Assembly: GCA_964460485.1 (NCBI GenBank) | Contig: CAYWRY010000003.1 | Span: forward strand, 1-63,882 | Reading direction: 5' to 3' | Length of the DNA stretch: 63,882 nt | Source: an uncultured Spirochaetales bacterium | Lineage (GTDB): Bacteria; Myxococcota_A; UBA9160; UBA6930 | In this document: in pieces, positions 7,203 through 18,528 of the stretch | How positions within the stretch are numbered: the first letter of the stretch is position 1 | Layout of the letters: every line of letters begins with the position of its first letter | Program-made: the position numbers and the translations under genes | The notes under the pieces: generated by a model | Told to the model about the DNA's origin: nothing | The model's input: the letters and a program-made list of their open reading frames with translations, nothing else | The model's database searches: none

Positions 7203-7230
7203 TCAAGTCGGCCGGCGCGCGGCCCGATGA
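7203..7230 (+). promoter_or_regulatory. sigma28-type promoter upstream of the PP2C phosphatase
   Basis: TCAAG-N15-CCCGATGA, ending 35 nt before ATG 7266. Confidence 0.65.
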
Positions 7231-7265
7231 AGCTCGGCAGTGCGAGCGCGGGGGACGGAGCGGCG

Positions 7266-7991
7266 ATGATTCTCAGGGCGGCGGCCCGCAGCGACGTCGG
7301 CATGCGCCGGCGCGGCAACGAGGATCGTTTCGTGCTCGTGCCGGAGCACGGTTTCTATCTCGTCGCAGACGGCATGGGCGGCCACACCGCGGGGCAGATC
7401 GCGAGCCAGCTCGCGGCCGAGGCGTCGGCGCGTGCGATCGCGGCGCTCGAGGGAGCGAACGCGACCCCCGCCGAGAAGCTGCGCATGGTGGTCGCCGCGG
7501 CGAACCGCGCGATCTACCTGGCCGCGCAGCGCCAGCCGGAGTACGCGGGCATGGGGACCACGGTCGTGGCGGTGCTCGCCGCCGGCGAGCGAGCCGCCCT
7601 GGCGCACGTGGGCGACAGCCGCGCCTACCTGGTACGCAGGAACCGCATCCGGCAGCTCACCGACGACCACTCGATCGTGGGCGAGCTGCTGCGCCGCCAG
7701 GAGATCTCCCTCGACGCCGCCAAGGAGCATCCCCATCGCCACGTGCTGACGCGAGCGCTCGGCGTTCGCGAGAGCGTCGAGCCCGACCTCGCGGAGCTGA
7801 CGCCGGCGCCGGGCGACGTGTTCGTGCTGTGCTCCGACGGCCTCACGAATCACATCGAGGATCTCGAGCTCGCGAAGCTGGTGGCCGAGACGGCCGATCT
7901 TCAGGAGGCCTGCGACGACCTGGTGGACATCGCGAACGGCCGCGGCGGCGAGGACAACGTCACCGTCGTCCTCGCGCGCGTGGAGCGTTAG
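7266..7991 (+). CDS. PP2C/PrpC-family Ser/Thr protein phosphatase
   Basis: SDVGMRRRGNED, VADGMGGHTAG, GMGTT, AHVGDSRAY, LTDDHS, RHVLTRALG, LCSDGLTN, GGEDNVTVV; GGAG RBS before ATG 7266. Confidence 0.92.
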   Translation: MILRAAARSDVGMRRRGNEDRFVLVPEHGFYLVADGMGGHTAGQIASQLAAEASARAIAALEGANATPAEKLRMVVAAANRAIYLAAQRQPEYAGMGTTVVAVLAAGERAALAHVGDSRAYLVRRNRIRQLTDDHSIVGELLRRQEISLDAAKEHPHRHVLTRALGVRESVEPDLAELTPAPGDVFVLCSDGLTNHIEDLELAKLVAETADLQEACDDLVDIANGRGGEDNVTVVLARVER

Positions 7992-8143
7992 ACGAGCGCC
8001 CGGCTACCAGCGACACGCGCAACGCGCGAACGCGGCTCGAGAATCCGCAAGCCGACCAGCGCTGCGCAGCGGCGCAGTCGCCGCTCGGCGAGGAGAAGCG
8101 ACCACCGCTCCTGGGGCGGTTGCCGCCCAGCGCCGCGCGACGA

Positions 8144-8911
8144 TCAGGCGCGCTCGATCACCGACTTCAGCTTCGAGCGCAGGCGCAGCACGGACTTGGT
8201 GTGGATCTGGCACACGCGCGACTCGGTGATGCCGAGGATGTTCCCGATCTCTTTCATGTTGAGATCTTCGTAGTAGTAGAGCGAGATCACGAGCCGCTCC
8301 TTCTCGGGCAGGGTCGCGATCGTGTCGGCGACCACGCTGCGCATCTCCTGGAGCTTCAGCGACGCGAACGGGTTCTCGGCGTTCACGTCCTCGACCACGT
8401 CCGCGTAGCTGCCGCTGCGGTCGCCGTCCTGTCCGCCGCCGCGCAGCTCTTCGAGGTTCACCAGCGAGATGCCGCGCACCTGATTGATCAGCTCGTGGAA
8501 CTTGTCGAGCTGGAGGCCGAGCGAGTCCGCGACTTCCTCCTCGTTCGCGGAGCGGCCGAGGCGTTGCTCGACGTCTCCGTAGGCGCGCTCGAGGCGGCGC
8601 CCCTTCTGCCTCACGCTGCGCGGCACCCAGTCGAGGGAGCGGAGCTGGTCGAGGATGGCACCCTTGATGCGGAACTCGGCGTACGTCTTGAACTTGCAGT
8701 TCTTGTCGGGGTCGTACTTGTCGATCGCGTCCATCAGGCCGATCACGCCGGTGTTGTGCAGATCGTCGAGGTCGATGTGCGAGGGCAGGCGGACGGCGAT
8801 GCGATTCACGATGTACCGGATCAAGGGGGCGTGCTCGAGCACGATCCGCTCCTTGAGCGCGCCCGGGATCTCGCCGAACTTGTCTTTGGCCGTCTTGAGC
8901 TGCGCTTCCAT
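8144..8911 (-). CDS. fliA: FliA/WhiG-family (sigma28) RNA polymerase sigma factor
   Basis: LPSHIDLDDLHNTGVIGLMDAIDKYD, FKTYAEFRIKGAILDQLRSLDWVPRSVRQK, LPEKERLVISLYYYEDLNMKEIGNILGITESRVCQIH; ATG 8911 chosen, GTG 8926 is an alternative. Confidence 0.92.
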   Translation of the reverse strand: MEAQLKTAKDKFGEIPGALKERIVLEHAPLIRYIVNRIAVRLPSHIDLDDLHNTGVIGLMDAIDKYDPDKNCKFKTYAEFRIKGAILDQLRSLDWVPRSVRQKGRRLERAYGDVEQRLGRSANEEEVADSLGLQLDKFHELINQVRGISLVNLEELRGGGQDGDRSGSYADVVEDVNAENPFASLKLQEMRSVVADTIATLPEKERLVISLYYYEDLNMKEIGNILGITESRVCQIHTKSVLRLRSKLKSVIERA

Positions 8912-8987
8912 CGCTTCCTCCGCCACGCGTTTGCCCTCGCTGTTCCGGGCCTTGGACCCGCACCTGCGCGAGCCGTGCGGGGGCATG

Positions 8988-9004
8988 AGCACGGCCCATG
9001 CCAA
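8988..9004 (-). promoter_or_regulatory. sigma54 -24/-12 promoter upstream of the sigma28 gene
   Basis: Minus strand TTGGCATGGGCCGTGCT = TGGCATG-N4-GTGCT, exact GG-N10-GC spacing, about 75 nt before the start codon. Confidence 0.7.
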
Positions 9005-9282
9005 GCGCTGGCCGCGTCCGCCCTGCGCGCGCTTGCACCGGCCCCGGGCGCGCCTAACTCGCGGATTTCCGAAGCGAAACCCGCTGCGCACTGCGCGCGT
9101 GCTGCACGCGCGCGGGCGCAGCCGCGGGAGGCGCGGTCGGAAGGCGCTCGGCAGAAGCGTCGGAGCGCCGACGCTTCGCGCCCGCAGGAGTTACGAATCC
9201 GTCACGCGGGCGCGCGGCGCGGACACGATCACAGCGCGCGGCTGCGTCGCTCTCCCGGCACGCGGCGCGCGCCGGTTCTCGC

Positions 9283-10674
9283 TCACTCTTCGGGCGAGAG
9301 GCCGTGCTTCTTGATCTTCTCGAGCAGCGTGGTGCGGTTCATCTCGAGCAGCTTCGCGGCCTGATTCTTGTTCCAGCCGGTCTGTTGCAGCGCCTGGCGG
9401 ATCAGCTCCGCTTCGAAGCGATCGACGGTCGCGGTGAGTGAGAGGCCGGAGGCGCCGAGGCGCGGCGCGTCGCTCGCTGCGCGCCCGGCGTCGGGGCGCA
9501 GCGAAGAGGGCAGGTCGGCGATGCCGATCGCGCCGCCGCCCTTCAGCACAACCAGCCGCTCGATGGTGTTCTCGAGCTCGCGCACGTTGCCGGGCCAGTC
9601 GTAGGCGCAGAGCTGCTCGAGGGCGTCGCGCTCGATCGAGCAGGACGCCACGCGCCGCTCCTCCTGCACTTTCTTCAAGAAGTGGCTCACGAGCAGCGGA
9701 ATGTCGTCCTTGCGCGCGCGCAGCGGTGGCGTCTCGATCGGGATCACGTTCAGGCGGTAATAGAGGTCCTCGCGGAAGCGCCGCTCGCGGATCGCCGTCT
9801 GGAGGTTCTGGTGCGTGGCGGCGATCACGCGCACGTCCACGCGCTGGGTCTGCGACGAACCGACGGGCTCGAAGGTGCGGTCCTGGAGCACGCGCAGCAG
9901 CTTCACTTGGAGGGTGGGGCTCATGTCGCCGATCTCGTCCAGGAAGATCGTGCCGCCGTGGGCGAGCGCGAAGCGTCCCTCGCGAGCCGCGACGGCGTTG
10001 GTGAAGGCGCCCCGCACGTGCCCGAACAGCTCGCTCTCCAGCAGCTCTTCGGGGATCGCGCCGCAGTTCACGGTGACGAACATCCGCTCGGCGCGTCGGC
10101 TCCCCCAGTGAATCGCGCGCGCGACCAGCTCCTTGCCCGTGCCGCTCTCGCCGGTGATCAGCACGGTCGAGTCGGTGTCCGCCACGCGCTCCACCAGCTC
10201 GAGCACCCGGCGCAGCGGGTCGCTCGTGCCCACCAGCGGACCTTCGCCGTAGCGGCTGTGGAGCTGGCGCTGCAGCAGCCGGTTCTCGCTCTTCAGGCGC
10301 CCGTGCTCGATGGCCTGGGCGGCGAGCTTGCGCAGCACGTCGTGGGAGGTCTGCTCCGAGCCCTTGTCGAGGTACCAGTAGGCGCCCGCCTGGAGCGCCT
10401 CGAGCGAAGCCTCCGCGCCGCCGTAGCCTGTGATCACGATGCAGGGCAGGTCGGCGTTTACGTCGTGCACCTGGCGCACCAGCTCGTGTCCGCTGATGCC
10501 GGGCATCTTCACGTCGCACAGCACGAGGTCGAGCGGCTGGGAGGAGACCACGCTCATCGCCTCGGCGCCGTCGCGCACCGCCGTCACGGTGTAGCCCGCG
10601 CGCGCGAGCATGCGTTCGACCGCGCTGCGGAAGAACTCGTTGTCGTCGACCACGAGCACGTGCGGCTTCCGCAC
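9283..10674 (-). CDS. sigma54-dependent response regulator (receiver-AAA+-HTH), FleQ/FlrA-like features
   Basis: VLVVDDNEF...CDVKMPG; ITGESGTGKE; GAFTNA variant; FLDEIGDMS; IAATHQNL; REDLYYRLNV; [10 protein letters not shown]; GWNKNQAAKLLEMNRTTLLEK. GTG at 10674 chosen. Confidence 0.9.
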   Translation of the reverse strand: MRKPHVLVVDDNEFFRSAVERMLARAGYTVTAVRDGAEAMSVVSSQPLDLVLCDVKMPGISGHELVRQVHDVNADLPCIVITGYGGAEASLEALQAGAYWYLDKGSEQTSHDVLRKLAAQAIEHGRLKSENRLLQRQLHSRYGEGPLVGTSDPLRRVLELVERVADTDSTVLITGESGTGKELVARAIHWGSRRAERMFVTVNCGAIPEELLESELFGHVRGAFTNAVAAREGRFALAHGGTIFLDEIGDMSPTLQVKLLRVLQDRTFEPVGSSQTQRVDVRVIAATHQNLQTAIRERRFREDLYYRLNVIPIETPPLRARKDDIPLLVSHFLKKVQEERRVASCSIERDALEQLCAYDWPGNVRELENTIERLVVLKGGGAIGIADLPSSLRPDAGRAASDAPRLGASGLSLTATVDRFEAELIRQALQQTGWNKNQAAKLLEMNRTTLLEKIKKHGLSPEE

Positions 10675-10724
10675 TCGAAACCTCGCAGGGGGGTCGGCGC
10701 AGGTTAGGCGAGTGCGCTTCCGCC

Positions 10725-10752
10725 TCAAGGGTCGTCGCGCCGGCTCCGATGA
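10725..10752 (+). promoter_or_regulatory. sigma28-type promoter upstream of the second sigma54 activator
   Basis: TCAAG-N15-TCCGATGA; -10 box ends 7 nt before ATG 10760, so the transcript may be leaderless. Confidence 0.65.
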
Positions 10753-10759
10753 ACCGCCC

Positions 10760-12199
<1,440 letters not shown>

Positions 12200-12331
12200 T
12201 GCTCCTCCGCCGGTGCCGCTCTCCCCAACAACTGCGCGCGGCGTCTAGCGATGCGAGTCGCCCTCGATAAACTGCGCGAACCCCCTCTGATCCTCTTGCG
12301 CGCCTCGCACCGCGGGGCATGAGGGGAAGCC

Positions 12332-13942
12332 GTGGCCCGCGAAGCGAACCACCTCCAGCGAGTGCTGCTGCTCGCGCCGCCGCCCGCGGCGCACGACGCG
12401 CGCGGCGCCGCAGCGGAGGCGCTGGTCGGCTTGGGCCCCGCGGTCGCGATCGAGCTGTGTCACGACGTCGCCGCCGCGCGCGCCGCGCTCGCCGGTGCCG
12501 CGATGTCGCTGGTCGTCGCGGACCTGCGCGTGCCTTCCGCGCTCGCCTGGCTCGAGGAGCTGCGCGACGCGGCGCGCGCGCCCGCCCTGGCGATCGCACG
12601 CAGCGACGCCGAGGCCGTGGCCGCCTTCCGCGCCGGCGCTGCCGAATGCGTCGGCGCACGCGAGATCGCCGAGGCGCTGGCGCCGACGGCGAGGGCGGTC
12701 GTCGCGCGCTGGCGGCGCCGGTTCGCCGGCGAGCGTCTGGAAGACGGGCTCGGCCGCGCGGCGCGCGACGTAATCGAGCACATGAACAGCGCGCTGCTCG
12801 TGCTGGACCGGCGCGGGGAAGTCACCTTCGCGAACCCAACCGCGACACAGCTGCTCGGGAGCGACGGCGAGTCGCTGGCGGGGCGGCCTTTCGGCCGGTG
12901 GTTCCCGGGCGTGCCGCGCGGGCAGCTGCTGGTGCAACGCACGCTCGAACGCGGCGAGAAGCTGCGCGGCGCGGAGACGATGGTGACTCGCGCGGACGGG
13001 CGCGCGATCCCGATCGGCCTGTCCGCCGCGCCGCTGCTCGGTGCGCACGGCGAGCCCGATGGCGCGATCGTGATATTCCAGGATCTGACGGAGATCAAGC
13101 AGCTCGAGCGCCAGCTGCTCCAGCGCGAGAAAATGGCGTCGATCGGCCAGCTCGCCGCCGGCGTCGCCCACGAGATCAACAATCCCATGGGCTTCATCCA
13201 CGCGAACCTGTCGCAGCTCGGCGAATACCTCGACGACCTGCGGCGCGTGTGGGAGAGCCTCGCGGCGCTGCGCAAGGCGGGGCTCTCGGCGAGCGGCGAG
13301 GTGCTGGCGGCGGCCGAGGCGGCGGAGGGCGTGATCGGCGAGGTCGACGCCGAGTTCCTGCTGCGCGACTTCGGCACCGCCGTGCGCGAGTCGCTGGAGG
13401 GCGCGCAGCGCATCCGCGCGATCGTGCAGGACCTGCGCTCCTTCTCGCACCGCGACAGCGAGGAGAAGGTCTACGCCGACGTGAACAAGGCGCTCGACTC
13501 GACCGCCCACATCGTGTGGACCATGATGAAGCACTCGGCGCGGCTCTCGAAGCACTACAGCGAGCTTCCGCCGGTGCTGTGCTTCCCGATGCAGCTCCAG
13601 CAGGTGTTCATGAACCTGTTGATGAACGCGTACCAGGCGATCGAGGAGCGCAAGGCGCGGGATGGTGCGCCGGGCGAGATCCGCCTGCGCACGGAGCTCG
13701 CGGGCGGCGGCATCCGCATCGTGGTCGCGGACAACGGCATCGGCATGACGCCCGAGGTGCAGCGCCGCATCTTCGATCCGTTCTTCACCACCAAGGACGT
13801 GGGGGTGGGCACCGGGCTCGGCCTCTCGACCAGCTATCAGATCGTGCGCCGCCACGGCGGTCGGCTCGCCTTCGAGAGCCAGCGCGGCGCCGGCACGACC
13901 TTCTCGGTGTGGCTGCCGCTGGACGACGAGAGCGGCGCATGA
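12332..13942 (+). CDS. Cytoplasmic PAS sensor histidine kinase with a degenerate N-terminal receiver-like domain
   Basis: Receiver-like N-terminus (LVVADL); PAS ([17 protein letters not shown]); [10 protein letters not shown]-box; [11 protein letters not shown]; DNGIGM; [19 protein letters not shown]. Confidence 0.88.
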
Positions 13943-14307
13943 CGAGCGCGCGCCCCGTCGTGCTGCTGGTGGACGACGAGGCGCACATCCTCTCCGCTCT
14001 GCGCCGCGTGTTGCGCCGCGAGCCCTACGAGCTGCTCACCGCCGGGAGCCCGCAGGAGGCGCTCGCGCTGCTCGCGGAGCGCGCCGTCGACGTGGTGGTC
14101 TCGGACCAGAAGATGCCGGGTGCGAGCGGCGTCGCTTTCCTGCGCGAGGTCGCTGCGCGCCACCCGCGCGCGAAGCGCATCCTGCTCACCGGCTGGCCCG
14201 AGGAGACGCCCCAGCGCGAGCGCGAGGGCGCGCGCCTCGACGCGGTCCTATTGAAGCCGTGGGACGAGGCGGAGCTGAAGGACACGCTGCGGCGCCTCGC
14301 GCAGTGA
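13939..14307 (+). CDS. Single-domain response regulator
   Basis: VLLVDDEAHILSAL, VVVSDQKMPG, ILLTG, LLKPW; ATGA overlap with the kinase stop. Confidence 0.88.
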   Translation: MTSARPVVLLVDDEAHILSALRRVLRREPYELLTAGSPQEALALLAERAVDVVVSDQKMPGASGVAFLREVAARHPRAKRILLTGWPEETPQREREGARLDAVLLKPWDEAELKDTLRRLAQ

Positions 14308-14371: not shown

Positions 14372-15616
14372 TCAAGCACCCTTCGGCAGCTTGCTCAGGT
14401 AGTCGAGGTCCGCGTTCTGCGTGTTCTTGGCGCCGACCGCGAGGATGCGGAAGCGCCGCGCCGCGCCCTTCGTGTAGTAGATGCGGCCCTTGCCGGCGAA
14501 ACCGAGCTCGAAGATCGCGAGGTGTGGCGGCAGGCCGCCGACCTTGCGCCGCACCAGCGCGTTCTCCGGCTCGTCGCTGAGCTTCTTCAGCGCTTCCTCG
14601 GCGCGCAGCCGCAGGCTCTCGTCGCCGAGATCGGCGACGTCGCGCAGCGCGCGCTCGTCCACCTCGAGCTCCTTGTAGAGCGCGGCGAAGCGGCGCCCGA
14701 GCGACTCGGCGTCCTTGGCGCTGCGCGCCGCGCCCTTCGCGGCTTGCTTCACCTGCGCGCGCAGCTCCGCGATCTCGCCGTCCCTGGCCTCGAGATCGCG
14801 CAGCGCCTCGTCCAGCAGCTGCTCCAGCGCGCGCCGCTCGTCTTCCAGCTCGCCCGCCCGCGCCCCGGTGCGGCGCAGCGTGTCCTCGCGCGCCTCGAGC
14901 TCGCCGAGCCGCGCGTAGAGCACCTCGCGCTCCTCGGCCAGCGAGGCGATCTCGCGCTGCTGCGCCTCGCTCTCGGGCAGCGCGCTCGCGAGCCGCGTGC
15001 GCACGCCCGCGAGCTCGCGCTCGATGCCGGCCGCGCGCGACGCCACCTCGTCGCGCGCGGCGGTGAGCGCGCGCAGCGCGGCGAGCTCGCGGCGCGCAAG
15101 CCGCCGCGTGTGGAGCGCCAGAGTCGCCACGAGCAGGCCGGCGTAGGTGATCAGCACCGCGTTGGCGAGCAGCGAGTTGTAGGGGATCGCGACCCGCACG
15201 TCGGTGGAGGCGGGCAGCAGCACGGCGCCTTCGCCCGCGGCGGGGGGCAACGAGGGCAGGCCGACGTCGCCCGCGTACAGCAGGGTGCGCCCGTCCGCGG
15301 CGATCACGATCGGCTGCACGCGCACCTGGCCGAGACGGATCCACGGCGATCGTTCCAGGAGCGCGTGCACGCGCGCGTCCACCTGCGCGGCCACCGGGCC
15401 GCGCGTCGCGTCGACGGCCGCGGCCTCGGCGACCTCCCGCGCGAAGTGGCGCGTGAGCCCGCGCTCGAGGCCCCGCAGGCTGAATACGTAGGCCACCAGG
15501 AAGACGCAGATCGCGAGATAGGCGAAGCGGAAGCTCGCCAGGCGCTCGAGGGCCGAGGCCGCACGCTCGGCAGCCGGCCTCGCCGCCGTTTCCGTTCTGG
15601 CACTGCCATCCGCCAC
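14372..15616 (-). CDS. Membrane-anchored coiled-coil protein with a C-terminal RelE/Gp49-like domain
   Basis: Hydrophobic segments FRFAYLAICVFLVAYVFSL and LLANAVLITYAGLLVATLAL flank an extracytoplasmic loop; long A/E/R/L heptad region; C-terminus ...AIFELGFAGKGRIYY...RILAVGAKNTQNADL. Confidence 0.75.
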   Translation of the reverse strand: MADGSARTETAARPAAERAASALERLASFRFAYLAICVFLVAYVFSLRGLERGLTRHFAREVAEAAAVDATRGPVAAQVDARVHALLERSPWIRLGQVRVQPIVIAADGRTLLYAGDVGLPSLPPAAGEGAVLLPASTDVRVAIPYNSLLANAVLITYAGLLVATLALHTRRLARRELAALRALTAARDEVASRAAGIERELAGVRTRLASALPESEAQQREIASLAEEREVLYARLGELEAREDTLRRTGARAGELEDERRALEQLLDEALRDLEARDGEIAELRAQVKQAAKGAARSAKDAESLGRRFAALYKELEVDERALRDVADLGDESLRLRAEEALKKLSDEPENALVRRKVGGLPPHLAIFELGFAGKGRIYYTKGAARRFRILAVGAKNTQNADLDYLSKLPKGA

Positions 15617-15799: not shown

Positions 15800-16576
15800 A
15801 TGCGCGTCGTCGACCTGGATCGGGACATGGCGGACGTGATTCCGACCGGGACGACGCGCGATAGCCAGTTCCTGTTCGAGCGCATGACGCGCGCGACGCT
15901 GGACGCGACGCGCCCGGCGGTCGGCACCCGCATCCTCGACGTAGCGAGCGGTTTCGGGCAGGACGCGATCGCCCTGCGCACGCGCGGCGCGGAGGTGGTG
16001 GGCGTCGAGCCCTCCGCGCGCATGACGGCCTGGGCGCGCGCCGTCTCCGCGAAGGCCGAGGGTCCGGTTCCGCACTGGGTGCGCGGCTGGTCCGATGCGT
16101 TGCCCTTCGCGGACGCGAGCTTCGACGCCGTCTACTGCAAGGGCGCGCTCGACCACTTCGACCGCCCCGCGCTCGCGATCGCCGAGATGGCGCGCGTCGC
16201 GAAGCCGTCCGGTCGCGTGGTGCTGGCGGTCGCGAACTTCGACTCGCTCGCGTGTCGCGCTGCGCGCGCGGGGGATCGCTGGCGCGAGGGCGCGCTCGGC
16301 CGCGCGCCACGCCGCGGCCGCCGCCACTACGACGTGCCCGCCGACCACTTCACGCGCTTCGAGCTGCCGCTGCTGCGCGAGCACGCGCAGCGCGTCCTCG
16401 TGCTCGAGTCGGTGACCGGCTTGTCGCTGGCCTGGGGCCTCGCGAGCTGGACGCGCTTCGTCGAGCGCGTACCCGGGTGGCTCGCGAGCGGCGCGCTCCA
16501 CGCGGCGGATGCGCTCGCTCGCCGCGCGCCCGGCCTCGCCGACGTGATCCTGCTGGTGGGGAAGCCGCGCCGCTGA
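15800..16576 (+). CDS. Class I SAM-dependent methyltransferase
   Basis: RILDVASGFG motif I, VVGVEPS, LPFADASFDAV, EMARVAKPSG. Confidence 0.85.
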   Translation: MRVVDLDRDMADVIPTGTTRDSQFLFERMTRATLDATRPAVGTRILDVASGFGQDAIALRTRGAEVVGVEPSARMTAWARAVSAKAEGPVPHWVRGWSDALPFADASFDAVYCKGALDHFDRPALAIAEMARVAKPSGRVVLAVANFDSLACRAARAGDRWREGALGRAPRRGRRHYDVPADHFTRFELPLLREHAQRVLVLESVTGLSLAWGLASWTRFVERVPGWLASGALHAADALARRAPGLADVILLVGKPRR

Positions 16577-16633: not shown

Positions 16634-17413
16634 ATGCCTCGCCTCAGCCAGCTCTCGCGCTCGATCGCCGGCCGCGGCGCGCTCGTCACCGGCGCGGGGA
16701 GCGGCATGGGCCGGGCCACCGCGCACCTGTTCGCGGACGAGGGCGCGCAGGTCGCGGTCACCGACGTGGGCGCTGAAGGCGTGCAGCGGGTGGTCGACGA
16801 GATCCTCGAGGCTGGCGGCGCTGCGCAAGGCTGGGTGATGAACGTGGGCGACGACGCGGAGGTGGCGCGCGTCGTCCCCGAGATCGCCGCGCGCTTCGGG
16901 CGCCTCGACATCGTCGTCAACAACGCCGGCATCAGCCGCTTCGCTCCCATCGACCACGCGGACTTCGTGAAGAACTGGAACGACTCGCTGAACGTGCTGC
17001 TCACCGCGCACACGCGGGTGATCCGCGCGGCGCTGCCGTTTCTGCGCCGGAGCGACGCGGGCCGCATCGTCAACATCGCCTCCACCGAAGCGCTCGGCGC
17101 CACGAAGTACGGCGCGCCCTACACGGCCGCGAAGACTGGCGTGGTCGGCCTCACGCGCTCGCTCGCGGTCGAGCTCGGGCCCGAGGGCATCACCGTGAAC
17201 TGCATCTGCCCGGGCCCAATCCACACCGGCATGACGCAGGCGATCGCCGACGAGCACAAGCAGATCTTCGCGAAGCGCCGCACCGCGCTGCTCCGCTACG
17301 GCGACCCGGAGGAGGTCGCCCACGGCACCCTGAGCTTCTGCCTGCCCGCCTCGCGCTACATCACGGGCGCCGTGCTGCCGGTGGACGGCGGCCTCACGAT
17401 CCGGAACGCGTGA
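16634..17413 (+). CDS. SDR-family oxidoreductase (FabG-like)
   Basis: LVTGAGSGMG, DIVVNNAG, IVNIAS, YTAAKTGVVGL (YxxxK), VNCICPG, GAVLPVDGG. Confidence 0.92.
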   Translation: MPRLSQLSRSIAGRGALVTGAGSGMGRATAHLFADEGAQVAVTDVGAEGVQRVVDEILEAGGAAQGWVMNVGDDAEVARVVPEIAARFGRLDIVVNNAGISRFAPIDHADFVKNWNDSLNVLLTAHTRVIRAALPFLRRSDAGRIVNIASTEALGATKYGAPYTAAKTGVVGLTRSLAVELGPEGITVNCICPGPIHTGMTQAIADEHKQIFAKRRTALLRYGDPEEVAHGTLSFCLPASRYITGAVLPVDGGLTIRNA

Positions 17414-18528
17414 GCGCCGCCCGCTCGCAGCGCGTGACGGGAAGCCTGCGCCGAGCGGCCCGGATCGCGCGCGTGCTCTGCGCCGCGGCGCTCGTCGCTG
17501 CGCCCGCGCTCGCTGGGTCGCCCGAAGCCGACGCGCTGGTGCGCGAGGCGCGCGCCGCCCAGCTCGGGCGCGACCCCGTTCGCGCGCGCGCGCTGATGGA
17601 ACAGGCCGCCGCCAGCGGCGACGCCGAGGCGATCAACGCGCTCGCCACCTTCGTCGAGATGGGCGTCGGTGCGCCACCCGACGCGGCGCTCGCGCAGCGG
17701 CTCCTGGAGGACGCCGCGGCGCGCGGCTCGGTGGGCGCGAAGCTGAACCTCGGGCTGCGGCTCACGCACTCGCAGAGCGAGGCCGACCAGCGCCGTGCCG
17801 TGGAGCTGCTGACCGACGTGCACAACGATCCGCCCGATCCGGCCTTCGGCGAGGAGACGCGGCGCATCGCGGCGGGCGGGCTCGGCGTCGCCTTTCTGCT
17901 CGGACGCGGCGTGATGCAGGACGTGGCGCGCGGCGTCGACTACTTGGAGGAGGCCGACGCCGCCGGCGACGCCGACGAACGCACGCTGTTCGCGCTCGGG
18001 CGCGCCTATCAGCGCGGCTGGGACGTGCGCGAGCCCGATCCGGCGCGCGCGCTCGGCTACTTCCAGCGCGCAGCCGAGATGGGGCATGCGGAGTCGGCGT
18101 GGCAGGTGGGACTGGCGCACCTGCGCGGCGGGGGCGTACCGCAGAGCGACGCGCTCGCCTTCGATTGGTTCGTGCGCGCCGGCGAGGGCGGCGACCCGCG
18201 CGGCGACGTGAGCGCCGCCTACCTGCTCTCGCTCGGGCGCGGCACCGTGGAGGACGACCGCGAGGCCCGCCGCCTCTACGAGCGGGCCGCGGAGCGCGGG
18301 AATGCACACGCGCTGCGCGGGCTCGGCGAGTTGCTCTTGCGTGGCGAGGGCGGCCCGCGCGACGAGGTGCGCGGCCTCGCCTACGTGCTGCTCGCGGAGC
18401 GCGCCGGTGTGCGCGCGGCGGCGTCGGATGCGGCGCTGCCGGCGCCGAGCGCGCGCGCACGCGCGCGCGCGGAGCGCGTGGCCGCCGACTGGGAGCGCGA
18501 CCACGGGCCACTGGAGCGTGCGGACTAG
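17410..18528 (+). CDS. Secreted Sel1-repeat (TPR-like) protein
   Basis: Signal-peptide-like N-terminus; repeated A...LG..Y..G.GV..D...A..W/Y...AAE.G units; GTGA overlap with the SDR gene. Confidence 0.85.
   Translation: MSAARSQRVTGSLRRAARIARVLCAAALVAAPALAGSPEADALVREARAAQLGRDPVRARALMEQAAASGDAEAINALATFVEMGVGAPPDAALAQRLLEDAAARGSVGAKLNLGLRLTHSQSEADQRRAVELLTDVHNDPPDPAFGEETRRIAAGGLGVAFLLGRGVMQDVARGVDYLEEADAAGDADERTLFALGRAYQRGWDVREPDPARALGYFQRAAEMGHAESAWQVGLAHLRGGGVPQSDALAFDWFVRAGEGGDPRGDVSAAYLLSLGRGTVEDDREARRLYERAAERGNAHALRGLGELLLRGEGGPRDEVRGLAYVLLAERAGVRAAASDAALPAPSARARARAERVAADWERDHGPLERAD

Follow-up and report, generated by a model that had tools for sequence, protein, structure and literature searches.

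A membrane protein family with a predicted RelE/ParE-fold domain and no antitoxin in Myxococcota and Desulfobacterales

Membrane topology and predicted fold

The window analysed here is a stretch of 63,882 nucleotides from an uncultured Spirochaetales bacterium (GTDB lineage Bacteria; Myxococcota_A; UBA9160; UBA6930), namely positions 1 to 63,882 of the forward strand of contig CAYWRY010000003.1 (GenBank assembly GCA_964460485.1). The gene under study, called X here together with its product, lies on the minus strand at 14372..15616, with a GTG start at 15616 and a stop codon at 14372-14374, and encodes 414 amino acids. An original prediction, made from the sequence without database searches, had described this open reading frame (ORF) as a membrane-tethered coiled coil ending in a RelE/Gp49-like toxin fold with no antitoxin; all the motifs that it quoted are present in the 414-residue ORF. 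The GC content of the window is about 73% and long spurious ORFs are common there. X is nevertheless a real gene and not a high-GC artefact, because a word-indexed search returned more than 800 full-length homologues with 50-95% identity, and because the 259 matches obtained by an exhaustive search among 50%-identity cluster representatives include low-GC proteins of about 380 residues that show 25-35% identity and the same layout as X. A simple scan found neither a sigma-70 promoter nor a terminator around the gene. Several high-GC homologues, among them the cluster representatives P0140, P0144, P0152 and P0164, have C-termini that are out of frame relative to the family, which are probably frameshifts caused by assembly errors and not real variants.

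A Kyte-Doolittle scan of X detected two hydrophobic segments, at about residues 29-47 and 149-168. The first transmembrane segment (TM1; 15476..15532, minus strand as for all parts of X) lies inside a modelled helix of residues 15-65. The second (TM2; 15113..15172) is followed on its cytoplasmic side by the basic motif TRRLARR, and the 15 residues after it, TRRLARRELAALRAL, contain five lysines and arginines. Therefore, the loop of residues 48-148 (15173..15475) is periplasmic and the residues from 169 onwards are cytoplasmic. X is thus an inner-membrane protein of the bitopic-loop type, whose two termini are cytoplasmic and whose periplasmic domain comprises about 100 residues, and hydropathy and the count of basic residues bear out the two membrane segments and the extracytoplasmic loop that had been proposed. 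The periplasmic domain was modelled as a small alpha/beta domain with three strands. It matched no Pfam family in a Pfam search and no solved fold in a Foldseek search with the full-length model; a cystatin-like Foldseek match was disregarded, its probability being only 0.3. The cytoplasmic part begins with a helical stalk (residues 169-313; 14678..15112), for which the model gave helices at residues 149-211, 217-250 and 254-313 and in which E260, L264, E265 and L285 are near-invariant. A helical stalk therefore does exist as had been proposed, at a length of about 145 residues in place of the suggested coiled coil of about 170.

The remaining C-terminal domain (residues 314-410; 14387..14677) is the part that was predicted to adopt a RelE/ParE fold of the Gp49/HigB type. 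An AlphaFold2 model of residues 305-414, built from an alignment of 16 sequences, had a mean predicted local distance difference test score (pLDDT) of 87.3 and a predicted template modelling score of 0.82, and showed the topology β-α-α-β-β-β-α. According to DSSP, its elements are β1 (317-319), α1 (321-328), α2 (333-348), β2 (369-373), β3 (377-383), β4 (389-396) and α3 (397-408), which is the fold of the RelE/ParE (BECR) superfamily, in which an N-terminal helical hairpin packs on a compact antiparallel sheet; the same topology has been described for RelE (PMC11980606). A second model, of full-length X with 132 sequences (pLDDT 86.9), reproduced both the domain and its Foldseek matches. The 17 top Foldseek matches of the domain in the PDB were all RelE, YoeB, YafQ, ParE, HigB or Cami1 structures. 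The best was the Thermus thermophilus RelE structure 2khe (E = 4.5e-4, probability 1.00, target-normalised template modelling score 0.72), and the target-normalised scores against RelE, YoeB and YafQ ranged from 0.66 to 0.74 with a probability of 1.00. Below these 17 matches, the sole repeated outsider was TrmO. In the viral structure library BFVD, the best match was annotated as a "cytotoxic translational repressor" (E = 1.7e-4).

Sequence searches gave a faint signal in the same direction. Six of 22 diverse C-terminal domains of the family showed weak matches to the Gp49 family PF05973 (best E = 0.0018), all below its gathering threshold of 23.9 bits, and no other Pfam family was matched by more than one of the 22. 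The C-terminal domain of X itself did not match PF05973, and a six-frame search found no PF05973 match in its genome. Against Pfam, NCBIfam and PADLOC, full-length X yielded coiled-coil noise only and its last 116 residues yielded no match. No match was obtained in PDB sequence and profile searches with the C-terminal domain and with two alignments of it. Alignments of the domain by hhalign with 12 canonical Gp49 proteins from related genomes, with HigB fragments and with Streptococcus pneumoniae HigB were not significant (E = 0.3-0.4) and were used for residue register only. In that register, IFEL of X falls on IWELR, GRIYY on DRILF and AKNTQ on MKRTQ of the canonical Gp49/HigB proteins. The modelled C-terminal domain is thus best assigned to the RelE/ParE superfamily, as a Gp49/HigB-like but highly divergent member. 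The models with their Foldseek matches, the recurrent weak Gp49 matches and the consistent though non-significant register support the proposed Gp49-type fold, and the comparison of a predicted structure with RelE, ParE and HigB, which had been suggested as a check, returned the RelE topology and members of that superfamily.

Conservation of the putative active face

The RelE-like domain is under strong purifying selection and is the best-conserved region of X in both clades that carry the family, with a mean pairwise identity of 0.74 in Myxococcota and 0.52 in Desulfobacterales; the values for the stalk are 0.14-0.55. Across 132 sequences from the two phyla, ten of its residues were invariant: Y314, E340, R357, K358, E370, R378, Y380, G395, K397 and Q400. 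The domain is also basic (median isoelectric point of 9.25 in the family), whereas the stalk is acidic (5.2), and this pairing of charges suggests that the stalk may mask the domain within one molecule.

In RelE, the residues that act in catalysis or contact the mRNA are K52, K54, R61, R81 and Y87. Seven residues of HigB(TAC) of Mycobacterium tuberculosis (K58, E66, R68, N73, R77, Q98 and K99) lie within 4 Å of the A-site codon, and the K95A substitution abolishes its toxicity; R68, R77 and K95 of this toxin have been equated with K54, R61 and R81 of RelE and with R68, R73 and K92 of S. pneumoniae HigB (PMC9098466). By the register described above, E66 of HigB(TAC) corresponds to E370 of X and R77 to R378, both invariant, and the stretch K95-N96-Q97-Q98 corresponds to K397-N398-T399-Q400, of which K397 and Q400 are invariant. 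K58 probably corresponds to the invariant K358. K99 is replaced by N401 in X and is a lysine in most relatives, and N73 has no alignable counterpart. The aligned positions suggest that the core of the HigB active site, including the counterpart of the essential lysine, is retained in X, and a putative RNase activity of its C-terminal domain is plausible.

Inheritance and genomic neighbourhood

The stop codon of X is separated by 64 nt from a convergent receiver gene and its start codon by 183 nt from a divergent methyltransferase gene. No antitoxin-sized gene was found beside X in the window or in 23 related loci (L001, L002, L108 and 20 others), which confirms the earlier claim that no antitoxin flanks it. 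In Desulfobacterales, the gene upstream of X encodes a tetratricopeptide repeat (TPR) protein of 760 residues and not a small antitoxin. X is present as a single copy in its own genome and was found in 31 of 41 relatives (20 of the 24 high-quality ones), whereas canonical Gp49 genes are sporadic in the same relatives (15 of 41). In a survey of the phylum by an even sample of 301 genomes, X was encoded by 40 of the 48 genomes of its own order and by none of the 253 others. X is therefore unlike a type II toxin-antitoxin gene, being a single-copy, syntenic core gene with no adjacent antitoxin. The taxonomic distribution and the neighbourhood, which the original prediction had proposed to inspect, thus turned out to be order-wide inheritance as a single copy and a fixed regulatory synteny.

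The conserved neighbours of X in the window are mostly regulatory genes. The convergent neighbour encodes a single-domain response regulator (13939..14307, plus strand) and is accompanied by genes for a PAS histidine kinase (12332..13942, plus), an NtrC/PrsR-like sigma-54-dependent response regulator (10760..12199, plus), a second sigma-54-dependent response regulator (9283..10659, minus) and a FliA/WhiG-family sigma factor that scored above the TIGR02479 cut-off (8144..8926, minus). On the other side lies the divergent class I methyltransferase gene (15800..16576, plus). A near-fixed order was found in 23 loci from 12 families: AnmK; a GT4-MT-GT4 cluster; the divergent methyltransferase; X; the convergent receiver, PAS kinase and sigma-54 activator; the second sigma-54 activator; the FliA-type sigma factor; and PP2C. 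Genes for EF-G, pantothenate kinase (CoaX), BirA and NadC lie beyond this conserved block. Even in a lineage with only 35% identity, X still stands beside both sigma-54 activators, FliA and FlgM. At 7227-14307 of the window, the PP2C phosphatase, the FliA/WhiG sigma factor, the two divergent sigma-54 response regulators, the PAS kinase and the lone receiver follow one another in an order that is kept across the order. A flagellar link of X was considered and rejected: FlhA is encoded by no more than about half of the relatives and its occurrence does not follow that of X, so that this regulatory block is not strictly flagellar.

Several local variations were observed around the conserved genes. 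In one locus (L113, G015:C12), X is inverted relative to every conserved neighbour, which fits a gene that is transcribed on its own. Nine of the 23 Myxococcota loci (L002 at 7418-7867, L114, L116, L118, L120, L121, L123, L126 and L127) carry a PilZ-like segment between X and the divergent methyltransferase; the segment is fused to the methyltransferase in L002 and is absent from the window. Between the methyltransferase and the GT4-MT-GT4 cluster, the window carries SDR and Sel1-repeat genes (16634-18528) that had no tblastn match in 23 related loci of other genera and look like a genus-specific insertion.

Outside this order, X is found in Desulfobacterales. A scan of species-representative genomes with a Desulfobacterales-only alignment found 286 relatives; those kept belonged to named Desulfobacterales or to unclassified delta-type metagenome-assembled genomes. 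Carriers include Desulfosarcina variabilis, D. widdelii, D. alkanivorans, Desulfonema magnum and Desulforapulum autotrophicum, with complete genomes of cultured Desulfosarcina and Desulfonema among them; the genome of Desulforapulum autotrophicum is metagenome-assembled. The Desulfobacterales relatives share 25-30% identity with X, which occurs in 65 of 151 sampled genomes of the group, mostly as a single copy. The family is thus spread over one order of Myxococcota and about 40% of the sampled Desulfobacterales. In D. widdelii, an isolated match of 46 residues to the extreme C-terminus of the family was also detected (G326:C1:5502892-5503029, E = 9.9e-12) in an open frame of 55 residues; it could be what remains of a gene, or a fragment that stands alone.

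In Desulfobacterales, X lies directly downstream of a PrsT-like TPR gene of about 760 codons, on the same strand, in 54 of the 66 loci with enough flanking sequence. The tested representative of these TPR proteins, from D. variabilis, scored 411 bits against the TIGR02917 PrsT model (cut-off 312). X is followed by a gene for an ExeA-like ATPase with AAA_22 and OmpA domains in 32 of 67 loci; the one tested, from Desulforapulum, resembles the XrtA/PEP-CTERM-associated ATPase with a score under the cut-off of that model. A small PilZ gene often follows the ATPase gene and was found by tblastn in 14 of 80 loci. This conserved operon of TPR, X, ATPase and PilZ genes is seen around positions 5600-11500 of L026, L028, L104 and other Desulfobacterales loci. 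Upstream of X in D. variabilis lies a gene for a PEP-CTERM protein, and downstream are genes for a convergent sigma-54 response regulator and its kinase. The recurrent company of X is therefore envelope or exopolysaccharide machinery, sigma-54 two-component regulators and receptors of cyclic di-GMP (c-di-GMP), and the occurrence of PilZ near X in both Myxococcota and Desulfobacterales hints at a c-di-GMP link. No PrsT-like or ExeA-like partners were found near X in its own genome, where ExeA-like ATPases are encoded on other contigs only and the TPR matches are generic.

Candidate function and comparison with known systems

The explanation that we prefer, with roughly even confidence, is that X is a signal-controlled, membrane-tethered effector that acts on RNA or the ribosome, is gated in cis and has an envelope-linked role. 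An action on RNA or the ribosome is suggested because the counterparts of E66, R77, K95 and Q98 of HigB are invariant and the modelled domain is basic; its simplest form would be ribosome-dependent mRNA cleavage, or binding to the A site, close to the membrane. Such an activity might be gated by the periplasmic domain, TM2 and the stalk in place of a separate antitoxin, with the acidic stalk masking the basic RelE-like domain as an antitoxin would. The role could lie in the control of envelope, exopolysaccharide or motility functions, and not in plasmid addiction or phage defence, because of the sigma-54/FliA two-component circuit and of the PrsT-like TPR, ExeA-like ATPase and PilZ partners. 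A toxin fold thus seems to have been put to a new use, as the output module of a regulator linked to the envelope.

Several observations weigh against this explanation. R68 of HigB (K54 of RelE), a proposed acid-base partner, corresponds to G372 in X and to valine or isoleucine in Desulfobacterales. F93, the aromatic positioning residue of HigB, whose counterpart in VcHigB2 is Y82 (PMC5416850), corresponds to the invariant G395. Moreover, helix α3 has no histidine or tyrosine that is conserved throughout the 132 sequences. Because the counterparts of R68 and F93 and a His or Tyr in α3 are absent, catalysis may have been lost. The mapping of HigB residues on X is by sequence register and not by three-dimensional superposition. 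Since no hidden Markov model (HMM) or profile search gave a significant match between X and any RelE-family model, the proposed homology draws on predicted structure and on weak recurrent matches. Finally, the putative functional link of X to its Myxococcota neighbours consists of conserved synteny only, because these genes are convergent or divergent and not co-transcribed with X.

The losses at G372 and G395 and the lack of a conserved His or Tyr general acid in α3 fit a catalytically dead scaffold, which would bind the ribosome, an RNA or a protein partner (a regulator, for instance) and tether it to the membrane without cleaving RNA. There is a precedent, as inactive HigB variants and the non-toxic HigB2 and HigB3 still interfere with translation at high dose (PMC9098466), and a core gene without an antitoxin is most easily tolerated if its product is harmless. 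However, the putative active face has seven polar residues that do not vary across two phyla, including the lysine equivalent to K95 and the KN-Q motif. This exceeds the needs of a scaffold, although a conserved RNA-binding surface could also account for it. We regard a dead scaffold as possible, but prefer an active mRNase as the reading of the domain.

A more specific form of the effector that we prefer would be an active RelE-type ribosome-dependent RNase, free of an antitoxin and fixed on the inner membrane, as an analogue of the regulated mRNA decay by Ire1. Ire1 is a eukaryotic transmembrane sensor of the endoplasmic reticulum with a cytosolic kinase/KEN RNase domain. The analogy is one of logic only, in that a sensor in the lumen or periplasm would be linked across the membrane to an RNase-type output in the cytoplasm, and implies no homology with X. 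By this analogy, the periplasmic domain of 100 residues would read a signal on the assembly of exopolysaccharide, secretin or envelope, perhaps in concert with the PrsT-like TPR protein and the ExeA-like ATPase. Transmission of this signal via TM2 and the acidic stalk would unmask the C-terminal domain. The unmasked domain might then cleave mRNAs under translation at the membrane and so work in parallel with the sigma-54/FliA/c-di-GMP circuit to tune the programmes for envelope, motility and biofilm. In this full form, the idea is doubtful.

A role as a single-gene toxin or an abortive-infection or defence protein, neutralised in cis and triggered at the membrane (e.g. by phage DNA entry or envelope damage) in the way that has been proposed for ToxM or shown for HEC-07, is unlikely. 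Multidomain RelE-fold proteins do occur in defence contexts (HEC-07, ToxM, PtuZ and Cami1), and the acidic stalk beside a basic toxin-like domain resembles the charge pairing of antitoxin and toxin. However, X lies outside any defence island or mobile element, among housekeeping and regulatory genes, and its near-universal, rigidly syntenic occurrence as a single copy in the order differs from that of the sporadic canonical Gp49 genes of the same genomes. A search with PADLOC-DB 2.0 gave only coiled-coil noise for X (JetC, PbeC and LmuB; E = 0.0035 or weaker) and no match for the C-terminal domain alone. For these reasons, the abortive-infection effector is the least supported of the three functions suggested by the original prediction, the others being an envelope-sensing mRNase and a domesticated ribosome-binding module. 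Inhibition of DNA gyrase in the manner of ParE, instead of an action on RNA, is very improbable: the fold is common to both and the ParE entries 5cw7, 5czf, 7r5a and 8c24 were among the Foldseek matches, but RelE, YoeB and YafQ outranked them, the sole recurrent Pfam signal was Gp49, a family of ribosome-dependent mRNases, and the E/R/K/Q motif of X fits the catalytic positions of HigB. We give just as little credence to the RelE resemblance being a modelling artefact of an unrelated small alpha/beta domain, since, although every sequence-based search was non-significant and the structural evidence consists of predicted models, two independent models (from 16 and 132 sequences) agree in topology with a pLDDT of at least 87 over the domain, the matches in two structure libraries (PDB and BFVD) belong almost exclusively to one superfamily, and the weak Pfam matches converge on Gp49.

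The proposed membrane-tethered effector can be compared with known proteins of the superfamily. With the Gp49/HigB toxins (PF05973; M. tuberculosis HigB(TAC), 7awk and 7nbu; S. pneumoniae HigB, 6af3) and with RelE, YoeB and YafQ, X shares the modelled β-α-α-β-β-β-α fold with its long C-terminal helix, the basic character of the domain, and the order and register of E-L in β2, G-R-h-Y/F (h, hydrophobic) in β3 and K-N/K-T-Q at the junction of β4 and α3. It differs from them in that the domain stands at the end of a membrane and stalk region of 310 residues, in being a core, syntenic and single-copy gene without an antitoxin gene, in falling below every HMM threshold, and in having G372 for the arginine of the ELR motif and G395 for the aromatic residue before the catalytic lysine. 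ToxM, possibly the first membrane-associated type II toxin-antitoxin complex (Gerdes 2025, mBio, PMC11980606), is likewise an inner-membrane protein that has a domain of the RelE/ParE fold in the cytoplasm and another domain in the periplasm. Its order is the opposite of that of X, with an N-terminal BECR domain, one central transmembrane segment, a disordered periplasmic region and a C-terminal domain, and it is co-transcribed with an upstream ribbon-helix-helix/helix-turn-helix antitoxin, ToxR (PMC11980606). X has two transmembrane helices, a coiled-coil stalk and a C-terminal BECR domain, and no gene of the ToxR type; an identification with ToxM was rejected for the reversed domain order and the missing antitoxin gene.

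HEC-07 resembles X in that one polypeptide carries a RelE-like domain at its C-terminus and has no separate antitoxin, but it is soluble, its N-terminal domains are AdoMetDC-like and thioredoxin-like, its catalytic histidine (H543) is conserved, and it is encoded inside Hma defence systems (Payne et al., bioRxiv 10.1101/2024.01.29.577857). X was not assigned to this group, as its N-terminal part consists of two transmembrane segments, a periplasmic domain and a coiled coil, no histidine is conserved family-wide and there is no defence context. In Cami1, a CRISPR ancillary ribosome-dependent RNase of CARF-RelE architecture (8phj; Foldseek rank 10), the RelE domain is also the regulated output of a sensor. 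The sensor of Cami1 is a cytoplasmic, cA4-binding CARF domain associated with CRISPR, whereas the sensor-like part of X is in the membrane and periplasm and there is no CRISPR context, so that this identification was rejected on both architecture and context. X thus has a RelE fold as a regulated output in common with ToxM, HEC-07 and Cami1, but none of their architectures.

To our knowledge, proteins with the RelE/ParE fold have been described almost exclusively as toxins that depend on a dedicated antitoxin or as effectors of defence systems. In the X family, the predicted RelE fold is the best-conserved part of an antitoxin-free core membrane protein. An active domain would make X the first mRNA interferase that is anchored in the membrane, gated by a signal and used in normal physiology, and would show how cells can safely carry such a nuclease without an antitoxin. 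An inactive domain would instead be a clear example of a toxin fold that was domesticated to bind ribosomes or RNA. The cultured hosts make the family accessible to experiments. A survey of the superfamily took Pfam families as its starting point and excluded BECR proteins of several domains for which no antitoxin could be identified (PMC11980606); it probably missed the X family, because no Pfam model of BECR proteins detects it. The family also escapes the models of NCBIfam and PADLOC, and merits a family definition of its own. Many of its members (P0002-P0110) carry the JGI labels "predicted nucleic acid-binding Zn-ribbon protein" or "predicted nuclease with TOPRIM domain". Neither a Zn-ribbon nor a TOPRIM domain is present in the family members, and these names probably stem from coiled-coil matches.

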